DNA of 64,000 nucleotides, from the NCBI GenBank assembly GCA_965216755.1, contig CBDCGL010000011.1, positions 4,179,482-4,243,481 on the forward strand, given 5' to 3'. This document shows positions 52,033 through 61,178 of this stretch, piece by piece. This DNA comes from Alphaproteobacteria bacterium. Its GTDB lineage: Bacteria > Pseudomonadota > Alphaproteobacteria > UBA7887. Both the position numbers and the translations under genes were made by a program. How positions within the stretch are numbered: position 1 is the stretch's first letter; every line of letters starts with the position of its first letter. The notes under the pieces were generated by a model. That model was given only the letters and a program-made list of their open reading frames with translations, had not been told where the DNA came from and did not search any database.

Positions 52033-53211
52033 TTAGTACCTTCGAACTGCCCCTTTGTTTTCCAATGAACCAATCACGGGGACGCCGAGCACAGCTTCGG
52101 CGACTTCCGGTCGCTCCACGCGGTGATTGAAATACTGCCGCAAAAAGGCGATCAGTAGCGATAGGACGAAGCCGCCGATCATGGCAATCTTTATGTAAAA
52201 GATGCGCGAGTGATTGGGCCGTGCAGGCGCCGAGGCATATTCGATGATCTGCACGTTGATGAGATTTTCGGGTACTGCCTCGCGGGCACGCTCTTGCTCG
52301 TAGCGGTCTCGATAGTCCAAAAAGATCGTCTCTTGAGCACTGATCCGGACGTTCAGATCGTTGATGGTTGATTGCCGTGACTCAAGCCCGCGCAAATCGC
52401 GGTTGCGCGCAGTCAGTTCGGTTTCCTGCGCGGTGATCGAATCAGTGATGGCCGTCACACGCGGATGGTCATTGGAATAAAGCGACAAAAGCTCCGATCG
52501 TTCGGTGTTGAGCGTTGCAATGCGATCACGAATGCGGCCCACTTCCCGAAGCAGTTCGGCCTTGGCTTCTTCGGGCGAGGTCACCGAATGTTCGGCCATA
52601 TAATCCGACAGCAACTGCCGCAGCCGATCCAATTCGATCGAGGCCTCCTCCAGCTTGGTCTCGAAATATTTGCTTGCGCCGCGCGAGTTCACCAACGAGC
52701 TGCGATAAGCGATATACGACTCCGTCACCGCATTGACGATTAGCATGGCCAAGTTCGGATCACGACTGCCATAAGAAATTGTCATGATGTTCGAATCGAC
52801 GATGGGTTTGATCTTGATATCGTCGGTGAGATTCTCAATCCAGGCTTCGCGCGGCGGCACGGCCGTACGCAAGCCCAAGCGTTCCATGAGTGACGGCTTC
52901 TCGGCGCCCAACGGGTTGCCGCTGTCACCGGCATTCTGTGGAATGAATTCATCGACAACGGCTTCGATCACCGGTCGCGACCGAACAATCTCGATCTCGG
53001 TGTTCATGGCTTCAGCCATTTCCGGAACGGTCGTCAGTGGCCCGGTGATAATCGGTGCTTTGGTCCGTTCAACCAAAACCGTGCCGCTGGCGATATAGGC
53101 GGGCGGCCTGAAATAGGTCAGTACGGTTACGATCGCGACCACAAACACCCACCAGCCGAGGATGCTGCTCTTATAGCGAAACAGAAACCATAGAATGTCG
53201 CGTTTGGTCAT
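52033..53211 (-). CDS. Polysaccharide chain-length determinant / co-polymerase (Wzz/GumC/EpsF-like), without a kinase domain.
   Basis: Two TM helices flank a long coiled-coil periplasmic domain in 392 aa. The motif near the C-terminal TM (GGFVLSLLIAFLRQY) is present. Confidence 0.7.
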   Translation of the reverse strand: MTKRDILWFLFRYKSSILGWWVFVVAIVTVLTYFRPPAYIASGTVLVERTKAPIITGPLTTVPEMAEAMNTEIEIVRSRPVIEAVVDEFIPQNAGDSGNPLGAEKPSLMERLGLRTAVPPREAWIENLTDDIKIKPIVDSNIMTISYGSRDPNLAMLIVNAVTESYIAYRSSLVNSRGASKYFETKLEEASIELDRLRQLLSDYMAEHSVTSPEEAKAELLREVGRIRDRIATLNTERSELLSLYSNDHPRVTAITDSITAQETELTARNRDLRGLESRQSTINDLNVRISAQETIFLDYRDRYEQERAREAVPENLINVQIIEYASAPARPNHSRIFYIKIAMIGGFVLSLLIAFLRQYFNHRVERPEVAEAVLGVPVIGSLENKGAVRRY

Positions 53212-53303: not shown

Positions 53304-54524
53304 TCAATAGAAAAAACTCGGAATTGGGAAATCTCTCTTGTTCAAAACCACACTGCTCAACGTCAGCGTGGCGTTGCTCAGCTCGTCGCGTAGCCGCTCG
53401 ATCGCTTGGACGGTCGTGCGTTGGGTATCGATCACCAAAATCACCTGTGTTGAAACACTGGCCCAACGATAAGGCGTGTCCGTGCTTAGGGCGCCTGCAT
53501 CCACAACAACAACGTCATAGCGATTGCGTAAGTTCTCAAATGTATCCGACCAACCGTTTTCATAAGGAAAGCGGCCGTCCGCGCCATTGGCCAACGCCAT
53601 CGCGTCGACGCCCCAATTGTCGATTTTAATGACGTTATCGTCATCGACGAGATTCGCCGGATCTTTGATCGGCGTCGGTCCACTACCCGGCAAACGCTGG
53701 GTCAGCCGATTGCCGTTTTCGGCCGCATCCACCAACAAGATTCGGTCGTCGCCGTTGCGTGCAAACGAGCGAGCCAGCCCACCGGCGACCGTTGACACGC
53801 CTTCGCCGGGCGTGCGGGATGTCAGCACGATCACAATCGCGCCACGCCGCTCGCTGTAATCATTTGCCGCAGCAATTATCCGTAGCCGAATTGAATCAAA
53901 AACTTTCTCGATCCGCTGAACGCGTCGGCTGACGCGACGCGGGCGCGACCGCTCCCGACGGCTGGGCGCAATCTTCTTGGTCCGCAGGTCAATTCCCGCT
54001 GCCGCTTCGGTGTCGCGGCTCCTTGTCGGTGTCGAAGGCACCTCGGCCACGAGTCCCTGACCGCTGCCGGGTTCGGTCGCGAACGGTTTGATCGTCGGAC
54101 GTTCTGCCACCAACGGCTTGGTCGCGCGGCCATTGGGTTTTTCATCGCCCGACGCCGCAGTCGTCTTCAACTCAGGGCGCTCGGCAATCAGTGGTGTCGG
54201 TGCATCGCTACGCTGTTTTTTTTCAGGTTTCGTTTGGGAACTATCGAATTGCGCGAGAATGCGGGCAACGCGCAGATCGCCGGCTTGGCGCGATTTGTTG
54301 CAATTGGCGTGGACGAGCGCGAAGTTGGCAGGTTCGTCCTTACCGCCCTCGCGAATTGGTTCAACATGCTCGATATGCAGCGACGCGTCGTCGTTATCGG
54401 TCGCCTCGGCAACATCGATCGGCTTGCCGCACAAATAACAGGTGCCGTTTTGGCGATTCGCTAGCCCTTGAACAAGGTCTTTGCGCTCAGATCCAGAAAG
54501 GCCTTTTAGGTACTGAGATCCCAT
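53304..54524 (-). CDS. Fusion protein with an N-terminal HNH endonuclease motif, a low-complexity linker, and a C-terminal BY-kinase/ParA-like P-loop domain whose Walker A is degenerate.
   Basis: The HNH motif reads CYLCGKPID...LHIEHVEPIREGG...NFALVHANCNKSR. The C-terminal IVLTSRTPGEGVSTVAGG is the BY-kinase Walker A with Lys replaced by Val. YDVVVVDAGAL is Walker-B-like. It is a single 406-aa ORF. Confidence 0.6.
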   Translation of the reverse strand: MGSQYLKGLSGSERKDLVQGLANRQNGTCYLCGKPIDVAEATDNDDASLHIEHVEPIREGGKDEPANFALVHANCNKSRQAGDLRVARILAQFDSSQTKPEKKQRSDAPTPLIAERPELKTTAASGDEKPNGRATKPLVAERPTIKPFATEPGSGQGLVAEVPSTPTRSRDTEAAAGIDLRTKKIAPSRRERSRPRRVSRRVQRIEKVFDSIRLRIIAAANDYSERRGAIVIVLTSRTPGEGVSTVAGGLARSFARNGDDRILLVDAAENGNRLTQRLPGSGPTPIKDPANLVDDDNVIKIDNWGVDAMALANGADGRFPYENGWSDTFENLRNRYDVVVVDAGALSTDTPYRWASVSTQVILVIDTQRTTVQAIERLRDELSNATLTLSSVVLNKRDFPIPSFFY

Positions 54525-54945
54525 CTGTCGCCCTTAGTCCACGCTCTTGCCGTCTTTTTTGAGCGTTTGTGTGTTCCACGCCGCAGCTTGTCGCCTCATG
54601 CCGCCATCGTTGCGGCGTGCACAAAGCGCCAGGCGCGGACGCCCCAATTCAATTTCGTCTCGGCGACAGCGATACCCCACCACCTTCGGCCGTAAGGGCT
54701 CGAAGACCGCTAACACCGGCATGTTTGCTTCTGCATATCAGAAGCTCAGCTTCGGTCGCCACGGCATAACTCTGGGCACTCCCAGTCTGTCATCCAATCG
54801 GCCCAACGATGACAAGCCGGCCCGTGCCTTCTTGCAACAGCATCCAGAGTATCGCCCAGGTTGGATGCTACCAGCAATTTGCTTGTTCTTATCGCACACC
54901 CTGCTACGCCGCACAATGAAACTAATCCGCAATAGTCCGACCAGA

Positions 54946-55977
54946 CTATGACGCCGACGGCGCGATTGGGCGGTCCAAAACCTGTGTTTGTGGGGGCCGT
55001 GATGATGTCGCCAGATGCCTTTCCCATTCCAGCGCCGTGCGCACGATATGTCCCAAATCATCATATTGTGGCTGCCAACCCAGCGTTTTCCTTATGCGGC
55101 TATTATCAGCGATAAGCGCTGGTGCATCGCCGGCGCGCCGCGCGTGTTCGTGCACCGGAAAATCGATCCCGGCTACCCGTTTCACTGCCGCAATTACCTC
55201 ACGCACGCTGGCACCATGGCCGTAGCCACAGTTTAAAACTGCCGAATCACCGCCCCGGTCCAAATATTCCAAAGCATCAACATGGGCCTGCGCCAAGTCG
55301 TCGACATGAATATAGTCGCGAATACAAGTGCCGTCGGGCGTATCATAATCGGTGCCAAAAATAGCCATGTTCGGTCGTTTTCCGACAGCCACCTCGCACG
55401 CCACTTTGATCAGATGGGTCGCGTCGGCGGTTGCTTGCCCAACTCGGCCCATGGCATCCGCGCCGGCCACGTTGAAATAGCGCAAACTGATGAAGCGCAG
55501 CGCGGTCGCCGCAGCCAGATCCATGATCATCCGTTCGCTCATCATTTTCGAGGCGCCATATGGGTTGATCGGCTGTAGCAGGGTATCTTCATCGATCAGT
55601 GAGGCCTCGGGTATGCCGTAGACGGCTGCGGTCGACGAGAACACGATCTTGCCGATCCCAAATCGGTCGCACAGGCGCAGCAGAGCCAAAGTATTGGCCG
55701 TATTGTTGTTGTAATATTTCAGTGGATCGCGAACCGATTCCGGCACGACGATATGGGCCGCCATGTGGCAGACGGCATCGAAACTCTGCGCGTCCAGCAG
55801 CTTCCCAAGGCGGGTCGCATCGGCAATGTCACCCTCCACCAGGGTGCCTTGGGTCACCGCCCAAGCGTGCCCGGTCGAAAGATTGTCATAAGTGACGACT
55901 TCATGCCCGGCCTCTGCCAGACGAATGAGAATGTGGCTGCCGATATAGCCCGCGCCGCCGGTCACCAAAATACGCAT
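54946..55977 (-). CDS. galE: UDP-glucose 4-epimerase.
   Basis: It carries the VTGGAGYIGSH Rossmann motif and the YGASK catalytic Y-x3-K within 343 aa. Confidence 0.85.
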   Translation of the reverse strand: MRILVTGGAGYIGSHILIRLAEAGHEVVTYDNLSTGHAWAVTQGTLVEGDIADATRLGKLLDAQSFDAVCHMAAHIVVPESVRDPLKYYNNNTANTLALLRLCDRFGIGKIVFSSTAAVYGIPEASLIDEDTLLQPINPYGASKMMSERMIMDLAAATALRFISLRYFNVAGADAMGRVGQATADATHLIKVACEVAVGKRPNMAIFGTDYDTPDGTCIRDYIHVDDLAQAHVDALEYLDRGGDSAVLNCGYGHGASVREVIAAVKRVAGIDFPVHEHARRAGDAPALIADNSRIRKTLGWQPQYDDLGHIVRTALEWERHLATSSRPPQTQVLDRPIAPSAS

Positions 55978-56016: not shown

Positions 56017-57198
56017 TTAGCGCGTGCGCCAAGCGGCGATCAGATCGCGCGCAGCGTTTTCCATTCGAAACGCCAATTTCGATCGCTGTAAAGTGAGCGC
56101 CGATCGGTATTCCTGGTCGGTGGCCAACCGCCGTTTATGAAACGTGTCTCCGTGCAGAAAATCGACAACCGCTGCGCCCGTGTGTAAGCCATGCACAATA
56201 CCCAAATAGTCGCATAGCAAGCCGATGCTGACATCCTTGTGCGGGCTTCGCATAAGCCCCCACTGGTAACAGTAAATGCGACGGTCAAAGACGAAATTGT
56301 AAATGTAACCAATGGGTTTGGGCCCGGCACGTACACGCAAAAGCTGAATCTCACCTGCCGCGAAGCGCCGATTGACGAGATCAGCGTGGAATTGGCGAAA
56401 CCAGGGGGATTCGAGCGACGTCGAAAAGCCCCGATCTTGCCAATCCGCCAAATGAAGGTTCGCAAGTTCCGACAGATAGGTCTGCGCCTCGGGCAAGGTC
56501 GCGGCCGTGTCGATGCTGAGGGCGCCATTCTGTTCGACCATCTTCCGCGATTTGCGCAGATGACGGCGCGTCTTCTTGCCCAAAAGCGCCTCAAAATCGC
56601 CACCCGACGCGCGCACTTTGTCGAGGTCGACGATGTGGCTCGTCAGGTCGCGGGATACCAGGCCAGGCGCCTGCAACGCTGCGGCGTGTTGGACATAGTG
56701 GGGCGCCACGCCTGACAACTGGATCTCGTCCCATTCGCCTTGTTGTAGGCCTGCCACCAGCCGCGTAATGGCGGCCCGCTCAATCGTCAGAGCGCCGACG
56801 TCTTGGGTCAGAAAGCCGTTATGCTCGATGGTTAGACGGTCGTACGGCATCGTCCCCGTCTCATGAAGATGGAGGCGACGAGACGAGATCAAACTGCGGC
56901 GCCGCAGGCGTTTTTCAACAAGGATTCCCAGACCGACGGTCCGGTCCCGGTGATGCACACGCAAAACCAGCAGTCGCAACGCGGCCGGAATGTGTGCCAG
57001 CCAGCATTCGATCCAACTCCAGGACTGGAAAAAGCTGGGTTGGCCCTGGCATTGCAAGTTCTGCCAAGAATTGGCCAAGTCGCCAACATCCGTCAGCGGC
57101 ATCAGCTCAGCATGCAGCTCATCCAGCGCAATAGTGGCCGGCCTGCTATCCGCTTGGGTGGTATCTCTTAGAACTGTGTTCGTATTCGAAACCATCAT
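56017..57198 (-). CDS. FemAB-family / BioF2-like acyltransferase associated with exopolysaccharide loci (PEP-CTERM-system FemAB-related type).
   Basis: The 393-aa protein has the Acetyltransf_6-like two-lobed pattern. It lies between galE and wza. Confidence 0.5.
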   Translation of the reverse strand: MMVSNTNTVLRDTTQADSRPATIALDELHAELMPLTDVGDLANSWQNLQCQGQPSFFQSWSWIECWLAHIPAALRLLVLRVHHRDRTVGLGILVEKRLRRRSLISSRRLHLHETGTMPYDRLTIEHNGFLTQDVGALTIERAAITRLVAGLQQGEWDEIQLSGVAPHYVQHAAALQAPGLVSRDLTSHIVDLDKVRASGGDFEALLGKKTRRHLRKSRKMVEQNGALSIDTAATLPEAQTYLSELANLHLADWQDRGFSTSLESPWFRQFHADLVNRRFAAGEIQLLRVRAGPKPIGYIYNFVFDRRIYCYQWGLMRSPHKDVSIGLLCDYLGIVHGLHTGAAVVDFLHGDTFHKRRLATDQEYRSALTLQRSKLAFRMENAARDLIAAWRTR

Positions 57199-57514: not shown

Positions 57515-58537
57515 CTAGTCGTTTAAGTCATAGGTCAAGCCGAAGCCGGCGTTGAGGCTGAACGGCAGCATGTTCTTGATGTACTGCTCGATCCACAGAT
57601 TCGCCTCGGCGATGCCGGACGGCGGAACCACAACGATATCTTGCGGTATCAACTGAAAACTGGCGCCGTTCGGCGTGCCGCCGTCCGGCGACTTGCGCAA
57701 ATTGAAACGCCAGTGGCTGTGCGTGCCGTCGTTGTTGAAACGTATTACCCGTACATCGCGGGGCGACGCCGTTGGCAAATAGCCCCCGGCGGCAGCGATG
57801 GCCATAAACGGATTGAAGGGGCGCGTATATTCGACGCCAATCGGGTTGACCACTTCGCCAACCACGTAGACCAGAGGAATGGCGCGCTCGGTGAGATTGA
57901 CTGTCGCCTCGACCCGGCCGCCAAATTCACGTTCATAGGCGCTTCGCACGTCGGTCTGAACGTCGACGAGCGCCCTGTTGGCCATAATCGGGTCGATATA
58001 GGGCAGGGACAACATGCCCGAATCGGAGACCACAACGCTAAGCGGCAAATTGCCAAATCCCGAATCCAAGCCCATCAAACGCTCAAGCCGGCGATCGCCC
58101 TGTTCCACGACAACTGCGACCTGTGACGTGCGAATCCCCCGGCTCCGGTAGGCGCTGGCCAGGTCTCGGCCAAGCGCATCGACCGATTTGCCGGCCGCCC
58201 GCACGCTGCCGACAACCGGCAGTGATATGTGCCCGTCTGGCAGGACAACGATGCCCGTGGTAGTCAGATTGTCGTGCTCCGCGACGCTGACCGCGAGCAC
58301 GTCATATACGTTGATGAGATAGCGCTGAGTCTCGACCTCGGTGTTGCGGTAATAGCGCACTTCCAGCCGGTCGCCGGGTCTGAGATTAAGCGACTGTGCG
58401 GCAGCATCATTGGCCGCCATGGCTGATTCCGGAGAGCTCGCCGCGCCGCGTGGCGCCGGCGGATAAGCCTTAGTGGCGCAAGCCCCTAATAGCAAGGCTG
58501 AACATAAGGCTATCGCCTTGATTGTAAAGGAATGCAT
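57515..58537 (-). CDS. Polysaccharide export outer-membrane lipoprotein (Wza/GumB/EpsE-like, Poly_export + SLBB).
   Basis: The lipobox is LLLGAC. The polysaccharide export signature PGDRLEVRYY and SLBB-like repeats are present. Confidence 0.75.
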   Translation of the reverse strand: MHSFTIKAIALCSALLLGACATKAYPPAPRGAASSPESAMAANDAAAQSLNLRPGDRLEVRYYRNTEVETQRYLINVYDVLAVSVAEHDNLTTTGIVVLPDGHISLPVVGSVRAAGKSVDALGRDLASAYRSRGIRTSQVAVVVEQGDRRLERLMGLDSGFGNLPLSVVVSDSGMLSLPYIDPIMANRALVDVQTDVRSAYEREFGGRVEATVNLTERAIPLVYVVGEVVNPIGVEYTRPFNPFMAIAAAGGYLPTASPRDVRVIRFNNDGTHSHWRFNLRKSPDGGTPNGASFQLIPQDIVVVPPSGIAEANLWIEQYIKNMLPFSLNAGFGLTYDLND

Positions 58538-59642: not shown

Positions 59643-61178
59643 TTAGCCGTTCGGCGGATTTCGGTCACCGTCACTGGGTGCGCTCTTGTGCGTGGCGAGC
59701 CAAGTGCGGGCTTGGCTTTGGGCACTGTCGCGCTGGGCGGCCGACAACAGCGGTGCGCTCTTGGCGATATTCCGAGTGGCGCGGTTGCGCACCGCGCTGA
59801 GGTCGTCAGCCAGCGCGGCGGCGATATGCCACCATTTGTTCGCGCGCACGGTGTCTTGTGCGACGCCATGGCCCTTCAAGTACAAGACGCCAAGATTATG
59901 CTGCGATTCGACATGACCTTGCTCGGCGGCACGACGATACAGTCGGGCAGCGGCCCGATAGTCTTGGCCAACGCCTTGACCAAGATAGTAGAGTGTGGCG
60001 AGCGCGTGCTCGGCCTGCGGAAGGCCCACGTTCGCGGCGCGTTGGAACCATTGCGCGGCGACACTTGGATCGGCTGGAACACCCTGGCCATTTTCATAGA
60101 GCCCGCCGAGATTGTATTGGGCGATAGCCGATCCTTGTTCGGCGGCTTGGCGATACCAAAACGCCGCCGCGGCGAGGTCCCGGTCGACGCCATGTCCCAA
60201 CGCATGCATGACGCCGAGAAAGTTTTGCGCGGTCGGATCACCGTCCTGCGCGAGCAACTCAAAAGCGCGGATCGCGCGGCCATGGTCTTGGGAATGATAG
60301 GCCGCGAAAGCATCGTCAAGGCCCTTGTCCCGGTCCTCTTTGCCCTTTGCGCCCCGGCCCGGCCCAGGTCCAGCGACCGCTGCCCCAGTCGCAGGCAAAG
60401 GCGACGAAGACGTCGTAGCGCCGTGCGTTGCCGTGACGGCGACGGCGTTGTCCGGTAAAGCCAGCACGCACGCGGCGCCGCGCGTCTTGAGTTGTGCGCA
60501 AATATGGCGTGCGCGCCGCTCATCGAGCGGCCCGGCGCGAACCCTGTGAATCTGGAAATTATTCGAGATCCCGTCACGCACGAATGTCTCGATTCCGGCG
60601 AACAGGTCGGCGTGCTTTTCCACCAATCCGCGTCGCAGATTTTCTGCTGGCGCGCGACCTGATCTGAATGCGCCCAATTGGATTTCGTAGCGCGGTGCCG
60701 CACGCGGCTGCGGCGGCGGTTCTTTCAGGCTTGGTCGTTCGGCCGGGACAGAACTGGACCGGGCAATCGTCGGCATTTGCCGGGCGTGCTGTGGCAAATT
60801 TCCTGGCGTCGGGATCGCGGGCGGCGCGGCGATCGAGTTCTTGCGGATACGCGTCCGTTGGAGCAAGTCAAGGACGTTGCGATGGCCCCACACGGCGGCC
60901 ATCGTGGCAGGTGTCTCACCAAATTGGTTGGTCGCTTCGACTTCGGCGCCATGGGCAATCAAGATGCCGACAATTTCGGTAAAGCCACTGGACGCTGCGA
61001 CGTGCAAGGGCGTGTTGCCGTCGTGGCTCCGTGAGTCGACCGGGAGCCCAGCGCTGATAAGTTCGCGCACCCGGTCGGCATCGCCGGCGCGGGCGGCATC
61101 ATGCAACGGGCCGGCTCGCGCCGCCGAAATCGTCAGTATGATTACCCACAGAAAGATGCCGTACCGAATCATTCGCAC
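59643..61178 (-). CDS. Secreted multi-domain protein with ankyrin repeats, a SPOR (peptidoglycan-binding) domain and Sel1 repeats.
   Basis: It has a signal peptide and ankyrin repeats (GNTPLHVAASSGFTEIVGILIAHGAEV). The SPOR-like region begins YEIQLGAFRSGRAPAENL, and at least four Sel1 repeats follow. Confidence 0.65.
   Translation of the reverse strand: MRMIRYGIFLWVIILTISAARAGPLHDAARAGDADRVRELISAGLPVDSRSHDGNTPLHVAASSGFTEIVGILIAHGAEVEATNQFGETPATMAAVWGHRNVLDLLQRTRIRKNSIAAPPAIPTPGNLPQHARQMPTIARSSSVPAERPSLKEPPPQPRAAPRYEIQLGAFRSGRAPAENLRRGLVEKHADLFAGIETFVRDGISNNFQIHRVRAGPLDERRARHICAQLKTRGAACVLALPDNAVAVTATHGATTSSSPLPATGAAVAGPGPGRGAKGKEDRDKGLDDAFAAYHSQDHGRAIRAFELLAQDGDPTAQNFLGVMHALGHGVDRDLAAAAFWYRQAAEQGSAIAQYNLGGLYENGQGVPADPSVAAQWFQRAANVGLPQAEHALATLYYLGQGVGQDYRAAARLYRRAAEQGHVESQHNLGVLYLKGHGVAQDTVRANKWWHIAAALADDLSAVRNRATRNIAKSAPLLSAAQRDSAQSQARTWLATHKSAPSDGDRNPPNG

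Follow-up and report, generated by a model that had tools for sequence, protein, structure and literature searches.

A BY-pseudokinase gene carrying an N-terminal HNH nuclease fragment in an alphaproteobacterial polysaccharide export module: a probable lineage-specific chimera

The fusion gene and its neighbour

The stretch of DNA analysed here (the window) is 64,000 nucleotides long and belongs to contig CBDCGL010000011.1 (positions 4,179,482 to 4,243,481) of the assembly GCA_965216755.1, assigned to an Alphaproteobacteria bacterium. Its minus strand contains an open reading frame (ORF) whose product begins with an HNH nuclease domain and ends with a domain of the bacterial tyrosine kinase (BY-kinase) type lacking the Walker-A lysine. 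The ORF is followed by the gene of a polysaccharide co-polymerase (PCP). The fusion gene, its parts and the partner gene are as follows.

53304..54524, stop codon included, minus strand: whole fusion ORF (HNH head, linker and BY-pseudokinase domain), taken from the ORF list and its translation
54207..54524, minus strand: HNH nuclease domain, codons 1–106, recognised with Pfam HNH, the family profile, tblastn and AlphaFold2/Foldseek
53982..54206, minus strand: linker, codons 107–181 (about 75 codons), rich in A, P, T, E and R, without a homologue and predicted to be disordered
53304..53981, minus strand: BY-pseudokinase domain, codons 182–406 with a confident core at 200–406, recognised from homologues, a PDB profile search and AlphaFold2/Foldseek
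53790-53807, minus strand: P-loop GEGVST (G240–T245)
53487-53513, minus strand: Walker-B-like motif VVVVDAGAL (V338–L346)
52033..53211, minus strand: PCP of the Wzz/PCP-2 type, 392 residues, no kinase domain, with partial matches to Pfam Wzz and NCBIfam EpsF/Wzc

The fusion ORF comprises 406 codons and begins with an ATG at 54524; codon-usage log-odds favour its frame over the entire length. The original prediction, made from the sequence before the present analysis, had placed an HNH domain and a BY-kinase-type domain in one ORF at 53304-54524 and a Wzz-like co-polymerase at 52033-53211. The ORF coordinates are borne out exactly, the strand (minus) being added here, and both homologies are confirmed by sequence and by predicted fold. 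The co-polymerase is likewise confirmed, with two transmembrane segments and no kinase domain.

The BY-pseudokinase domain and its family

Homologues of 205–270 residues align to residues 182/200–406 of the fusion protein. The closest of them, proteins P0002–P0004, are 45–48% identical to the window domain and keep both GEGVST and VDAGAL exactly. Motif conservation was counted in 60 diverse family members, 27–46% identical to the window domain (alignment A3). The position of the Walker-A lysine is occupied by Val in 53 members, by Thr in four and by Ala, Ile and Cys in one each; none has Lys. No member deviates at G242, at D342 (the Walker-B Asp) or at P402, and the Walker-A′ residue D266 is Asp in 48 of the 60. 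The domain ends in the conserved sequence NKRDFPIPSFFY; in place of a tyrosine cluster it has one terminal Tyr, conserved in 57 of 60 members. The C-terminus of the family at large is a near-invariant ...LY(R) tyrosine.

When the family profile is compared with the PDB, BY-kinase domains are retrieved first (VpsO with an E-value of 1.4e-28, then CapB, BceF, Etk and Wzc), ahead of MinD, ParA and BcsQ. The alignment to VpsO lays GEGVtT over GEGKTT and VVDaGs over VIDTPP. In the full-length protein, AlphaFold2 models residues 200–406 with confidence, and of the structural matches found with Foldseek the first 23 and the majority of the first 50 are BY-kinase domains, the best being VpsO, BceF, Wzc, CapB and Etk. 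None of the curated models for BY-kinases comes near its cut-off (TIGR01007, 42.5 against 108 bits; TIGR03018, 43 against 231; TIGR03029, 25 against 314), and no model covering the lysine-less family is present in Pfam or NCBIfam.

The domain had been proposed to be a pseudokinase scaffold with altered Walker motifs. Pseudokinase was the right call: the fold is that of a BY-kinase, and both the Walker-A lysine and a tyrosine cluster are missing. The GEGVST and DAGAL motifs are also as described; they do not reflect local degeneration, since lysine is missing from the whole family and the Walker-B Asp never varies. Because the P-loop, the Walker-A′ Asp and the Walker-B Asp are retained, proteins of this family may bind nucleotide without phosphotransfer, serving as a non-catalytic switch.

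The PCP gene starts 92 bp past the fusion ORF. Hydropathy indicates transmembrane segments at about 13–35 and 335–360 of its product, followed by a 35-residue cytoplasmic tail (...VERPEVAEAVLGVPVIGSLENKGAVRRY), which contains ...VERPEVAEAVLGVPVIGSLE... and is presumably similar to the kinase-docking peptide of CapA/Wzc. Compared over its full length with the PCP encoded after the pseudokinase gene in the related locus L006, the protein shows 53% identity. All the related loci examined (L001–L011) have the lysine-less gene directly upstream of a gene for a Wzz-type PCP of about 370–400 residues. These loci are polysaccharide clusters with Poly_export, Wzy_C, Polysacc_synt flippase, glycosyltransferase and Acetyltransf_6 genes.

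The HNH head

Residues 1 to about 105 form the HNH head. The canonical HNH/zinc-finger motif that had been claimed for the N-terminus is present with every element quoted, namely C29xxC32, H50-I-E-H53-V-E-P, GG60-61, N67 and H72-A-N-C75-N76. The profile search that had been named as a check on this region finds HNH above the curated Pfam cut-off (PF01844 against residues 29–79, E-value 3.5e-8, 33.9 bits; cut-off 21.4 bits). The family alignment shows that the zinc ligands C29, C32, H72 and C75 are all kept, as are catalytic H53 (54366-54368), N67 and N76, which lie in columns that are invariant or near-invariant. Sub-threshold NCBIfam and PADLOC matches are to the HNH parts of IscB, Cas9 and PtuB.

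An AlphaFold2 model of residues 1–107, built with family sequences, has a mean predicted local distance difference test (pLDDT) score of 78.8. It comprises strands at 49–53 and 68–72 followed by a helix, which is the beta-beta-alpha-metal fold. The best PDB matches found with Foldseek are Cas9 HNH domains, about 70 residues of which superpose with a root-mean-square deviation of 1.7–1.9 Å; further matches include the Gme HNH nickase, McrA and CBASS Cap5.

The family of full-length HNH proteins

A locus scan of species-representative genomes yielded 226 relatives of the HNH part (alignment A5), 80 of which were kept as loci (L012–L091) and underlie the family figures given here. Most of the complete ORFs (63 of 71) are 531–548 residues long, and the HNH domain stands at the extreme N-terminus. 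Examples are the following.

L012:10001-11611, L037:10001-11605 and L025:2869-4479: HNH-family loci; P0060 is an example protein

The window ORF, which starts MGSQYL..., aligns with this family, which starts MGSLYL..., from the first Met onwards. Identity is 41–52% across the family, and 45–51% by tblastn over 54524-54207; the CxxC...H...N...HxxCN pattern and a DLRVARILA helix are common to both. The sequence around the ATG at 54524 (a stop codon, a G-rich Shine–Dalgarno-like element and ATG-GGA-TCT) also resembles that of many full-length family loci. The full-length family profile matches the window ORF at profile positions 1–103 alone (E-value 3e-33). Family positions 104–537, about 430 residues including the FDGQHKAAAQ motif, have no match in the six frames of the 64 kb, whether by profile or by tblastn. 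Judging from these alignments, the window carries only the first fifth of such a gene with its native start, rather than a member of the family.

Full-length members are 56–87% identical to the reference L012 and are scattered patchily over metagenome-assembled genomes (MAGs) of many bacterial phyla and of archaea, a phylum spread that may be exaggerated by MAG binning. Their neighbourhoods are variable, with no conserved neighbour, and are never exopolysaccharide (EPS) clusters; DNA methylases (N6/N4 and HsdM) and helicases (ResIII/SNF2) are encountered there most often. The C-terminal region of about 430 residues has no Pfam match and no PDB sequence match. The FDGQHKAAAQ motif is invariant in this region and may resemble motifs of the DGQHR/DndB type. 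Gene context suggests a horizontally mobile nuclease of restriction and defence neighbourhoods, and the family of about 537 residues is a candidate single-gene defence nuclease.

Three of the loci (L017:3795-3851, L025:2824-2880 and L039:9956-10012) share near-identical DNA that includes the 45 nt before the start codon; one of them is assigned to an unclassified bacterium, one to a Methanocellaceae archaeon and one to an Atribacteria MAG. Their identity reflects either very recent horizontal transfer or mis-binned contigs.

The window HNH head is the most divergent sequence of the set. Its profile score is the lowest of the 80 sequences (121.5 bits against 141.5–165.6), and it is at most 52% identical to any family member, while the nearest neighbours of members are typically 79% identical. 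It deviates at six of the 28 columns that are conserved to at least 95% (in a leave-one-out comparison among members, the maximum is four and the median zero) and has a four-residue loop insertion unique among the family. The residue before catalytic H53 is Glu52; 79 of the 80 family members have Asp at this metal-binding position, and the D52E change is unique. The codon usage of the head lies at the 6th percentile of native genes, below that of the linker, as is expected of acquired DNA. The divergence of the head would fit drift after loss of the parental function; it would also fit descent from an unsampled divergent subfamily.

Occurrence of the fusion

An exhaustive phmmer search was run against 1.84 billion representative proteins of a collection of about 15 billion predicted proteins. 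The matches form two sets: proteins of about 205–270 residues that match residues ~200–406, and N-terminal-HNH proteins that match residues 1–~105 (45–52% identity). The query alone has both halves in one protein among the 1.84 billion representatives. None of the 80 metagenome loci kept from 317 confirmed relatives matches query residues below 163, and a search of 91 pseudokinase loci (565 kb) finds no HNH-family gene. Conversely, the 80 HNH loci searched with the pseudokinase profile give two weak P-loop matches, which are probably generic ParA/MinD-type proteins. A profile search of genome contigs with the close pseudokinase alignment A1 gave no confirmed relative. The HNH and pseudokinase families were aligned separately (A3–A7); a combined alignment, A2, was dropped because MAFFT laid pseudokinase N-termini onto HNH.

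A full-text literature search finds no paper on an HNH/BY-kinase fusion. The original prediction had called an HNH domain on co-polymerase machinery an undescribed arrangement, and this is borne out by these searches, with no other protein among the 1.84 billion and no paper. The combination thus stands as undescribed. It does not represent a designed module of the export machinery, the HNH part being the 5′ fifth of a nuclease gene of about 537 residues whose remainder is missing. The survey of orthologous loci that had been suggested for deciding between fusion and separate genes shows the two elsewhere as separate genes that are never neighbours, with the fusion in the window copy alone.

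Eleven of 13 window proteins looked up in the protein collection were found, each of them alone at 90% identity, bar one 51-residue fragment; the exact sequences of the remaining two are absent from the collection. No close relative of the genome is present in the collections.

The export module and other genes of the window

Further genes and features lie upstream of the fusion gene on the same strand.

54946..55977, minus strand: UDP-glucose 4-epimerase GalE (TIGR01179, 459 bits), upstream of the fusion
56017..57198, minus strand: Acetyltransf_6 protein (FemAB-like GNAT; PF13480, 2.8e-22), of the same family as genes in L008 and L010
57462-57490, minus strand: strong terminator-like hairpin with a 13-bp stem, nine G-C pairs and a T-run, directly after the Wza-like gene
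57515..58537, minus strand: Wza-like outer-membrane export protein (Poly_export and SLBB), with 32% identity to the Poly_export protein encoded ahead of the pseudokinase gene in L010

The hairpin suggests that the Wza-like gene is transcribed apart from the acetyltransferase, galE, fusion and PCP genes. The locus had been described as an exopolysaccharide export locus. Export genes are indeed present; they form a compact five-gene module (Wza-like, Acetyltransf_6, GalE, fusion and PCP) rather than a full biosynthetic locus. No glycosyltransferase (including GT4), Wzx flippase, Wzy polymerase or priming transferase was found in the window, either with Pfam over 28-64 kb or by tblastn with the proteins of relatives over all 64 kb. 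The module differs in this from all the related loci, which have glycosyltransferase, Wzx and Wzy genes. The biosynthetic genes would have to reside in another part of the 4.85 Mb genome; otherwise the export module is a remnant.

The other genes of the window are unrelated: TetR, MMPL and LolA-like genes on one side and an Ank/Sel1/SPOR protein gene, TfoX and DNA ligase on the other. The Ank/Sel1/SPOR protein (59643-61178, minus strand; 511 residues) has an unusual architecture of ankyrin repeats, a peptidoglycan-binding SPOR domain and four Sel1 repeats; some 1.1 kb separates its gene from the Wza-like one.

Origin and role of the fusion

The reading that we favour, at somewhat better than even confidence, makes the gene a lineage-specific chimera, its pseudokinase being the scaffold of the co-polymerase and its HNH head probably a passenger. 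The 3′ half of the gene would encode an ordinary stand-alone BY pseudokinase partnering the kinase-less PCP-2 of the next gene downstream. As in the analogous pairs EcpK/EpsV, HfsB/HfsA and CapB/CapA, the pseudokinase would sit at the cytoplasmic face of the membrane, bind the C-terminal tail of the PCP and organise its oligomeric state without tyrosine phosphorylation. The 5′ end would derive from a horizontally mobile HNH gene of about 537 residues, whose native start and approximately 105 codons make up one complete HNH domain. A rearrangement would have removed the other ~430 codons, the fragment becoming joined in frame through about 75 codons of disordered linker. Cut from its parent protein, the HNH head would be attenuated or inactive and held off the scaffold by the flexible linker as a tolerated passenger that probably plays no part in how the export machine works. 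Nothing shows that the fusion has been selected, because it is a singleton in a genome without close relatives.

Several points weigh against this account. The scaffold function of the lysine-less family is proposed by analogy. The HNH breakpoint falls cleanly between domains, and codon usage in the linker is like that of native genes, both of which could mean a selected fusion. The intact zinc ligands and H/N/N residues, together with the conservative nature of all six changes at conserved columns, would also fit a domain under selection. In-frame internal TTG/GTG codons (L138, V139, V159 and V162) could yield a short product of homologue-like length. Finally, the collections contain no close relative of the genome.

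The likeliest of the other explanations, though still an improbable one, is that the long ORF is real and the HNH–linker part is rarely or never translated, the short pseudokinase being made mainly from an internal start; this is compatible with a chimeric origin. The evidence concerns the possible starts and the gap upstream.

54525..54945: non-coding gap of 421 bp between galE and the fusion ORF, holding the Shine–Dalgarno-like element

The GTG at codon 159 is preceded by AGGGA, segment 159–204 has ambiguous codon usage and most pseudokinase family members are 205–270 residues long. The gap before the ATG shows no promoter consensus in a sigma-70-like scan, no RNA family of Rfam and no protein remnant. 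The scan, however, is limited to a single type of consensus, and the gene may share a transcript with galE. Also counting for translation from 54524, the ATG retains the native start context of the HNH family, with a G-rich Shine–Dalgarno-like element containing GGG about 7 nt before it and an in-frame TAA three codons 5′ of it, and no stop codon intervenes between this start and 53304.

Slightly less probable is an artefact of sequencing or assembly, or a very recent frameshift, with a true A-run of seven or nine. The HNH part would then be a separate pseudogene remnant of about 105–111 codons and the pseudokinase would be translated from an internal start, so that no fusion protein would exist. 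The position in question is a homopolymer.

54216..54223, minus strand: A8 run, codons 101–103 (...PEKKQ...), at the end of the HNH homology; seen in the sequence, with A7 and A9 simulated

Homopolymer length is a common error of long-read assemblies, which counts for this explanation in a contig of 4.85 Mb. The run lies exactly at the end of the HNH homology, and when one A is removed or added in simulation, the ORF stops after 111 or 105 residues. Starts at codons 138, 139, 159 and 162 would give products of 245–269 residues, and the homologues P0003, P0004, P0007 and P0009 have 254–268. With A8, however, the residues past the run (Q-R-S) still align to N-R-S of the family, and A7 or A9 matches no better. 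The codon usage of the linker lies at the 21st (codons 107–158) and 12th (codons 107–181) percentile of native in-frame windows, values reached by none of the 617 and 312 stop-free off-frame control windows, respectively, so the frame looks coding. Public gene calls contain the identical 406-residue protein. The fusion frame is considered genuine because the QRS/NRS alignment persists and the downstream frame looks coding. A frameshift had been named as what would refute the fusion: the A8 run at the junction is a site at which a single-base change would split the ORF, yet the frame beyond the run looks coding.

The linker itself is predicted to be disordered, with pLDDT values of 30–40 in the AlphaFold2 model of the full protein. 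No homologue of it was found in any search, including that of the 1.84 billion representative proteins. A word-indexed search with residues 1–203 alone returned no match, the query itself included, which reflects a limit of the index and is not evidence of absence.

An improbable alternative to the passenger head is a neofunctionalised fusion, with an active HNH nuclease tethered at the cytoplasmic base of the Wza/PCP complex, for example cutting phage DNA or tying DNA processing to the production of matrix. In its favour, no zinc or catalytic residue is missing from the complete HNH domain, whose changes at conserved columns are conservative throughout; the breakpoint coincides with the domain boundary, linker codon usage is native-like and small HNH domains, such as Gme HNH among the structural matches, can nick DNA alone. 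Against it stand the singleton status of the fusion among ~15 billion predicted proteins and the fact that the two families are never adjacent elsewhere. The ~430 highly conserved residues of the parent, presumably needed for targeting or regulation, are gone. The unique D52E at the metal-binding position, the lowest family score and the lack of any literature precedent found also count against an active nuclease. In its specific form, a metal-dependent nuclease held by the pseudokinase at the Wza/PCP base, with a function newly born in one lineage, the proposal is more doubtful still; its task would be, for example, to cut incoming phage DNA at the envelope or to connect the release of DNA with matrix production.

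A chimeric join made during assembly is unlikely, as same-strand EPS genes lie on both flanks of the HNH piece and no repeat is found at the junction. Around the fusion gene, no significant DNA repeats, insertion-site duplications or tRNA were detected, and proteins encoded next to HNH-family loci give only chance-level tblastn matches to 53900-54960.

A lineage-specific chimera with a passenger head therefore remains the reading that we prefer, and the fusion most likely arose by evolutionary accident and does not represent a new system; single and unreplicated, it carries little weight as evidence of new biology of that kind. If the fusion protein is made, it would be a case of natural domain accretion, a fragment of a mobile defence nuclease having been grafted onto a polysaccharide-export scaffold, and would be useful for studying the origin and tolerance of new architectures. 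Two wider results concern the parent families. A sizeable, un-modelled family of lysine-less BY-kinase-like proteins is delineated, characterised by GEGV[ST]T, an invariant Walker-B Asp and a terminal Tyr, its genes being strictly paired with kinase-less co-polymerase genes. The other is a highly conserved, horizontally spread HNH protein of about 537 residues with a large C-terminal region without a known domain.

Comparison with known systems

Unlike the HNH family of about 537 residues, the window protein has the first fifth only, is the most divergent of 80 sequences and carries D52E and the four-residue insertion.

The catalytic BY-kinases VpsO, CapB, BceF, Etk and Wzc are the best profile matches (E-values of 1e-28 to 1e-14) and structural matches of the pseudokinase, and the P-loop, the Walker-A′ motif and the Walker-B motif occupy the same positions. 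The window domain differs from them in having Val in place of the Walker-A lysine (V243), DAGAL in place of DTPP and a single terminal Tyr instead of a tyrosine cluster. BcsQ, a lysine-less P-loop protein of the MinD/ParA type from the same broad superfamily, is a non-catalytic organiser of cellulose secretion. It gives weak profile matches to the pseudokinase family (E-value about 1e-5) and is far more distant than the BY-kinases; it belongs to a synthase-dependent system, not a Wzx/Wzy-type one, and has no PCP partner.

A third, phosphorylation-independent subfamily of PCP-2 proteins has been proposed, in which a stand-alone BY pseudokinase scaffolds a kinase-less PCP-2; it includes EcpK/EpsV and HfsB/HfsA, to which others are added from earlier sequence surveys (PMC12004946). 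The C-terminal half of the fusion protein corresponds to this published subfamily and is not novel (PMC12004946). Like an EcpK/EpsV-type pair, the window has a cytoplasmic BY-kinase fold of the stand-alone type without the catalytic lysine and without a tyrosine-rich tail, encoded next to a kinase-less Wzz-type PCP-2 whose C-terminal tail is cytoplasmic; the polysaccharide export cluster also encodes a Wza-like protein, and no phosphatase gene is nearby. EcpK is reported to be without all three Walker motifs, whereas the family described here retains GEGV[ST]T as a glycine-rich P-loop, along with an invariant Walker-B Asp and, in 48 of 60 members, the Walker-A′ Asp. The gene order, pseudokinase and then PCP, also differs from that of the EcpK/EpsV-type pair, and an N-terminal HNH domain with a linker is added in the window copy only.

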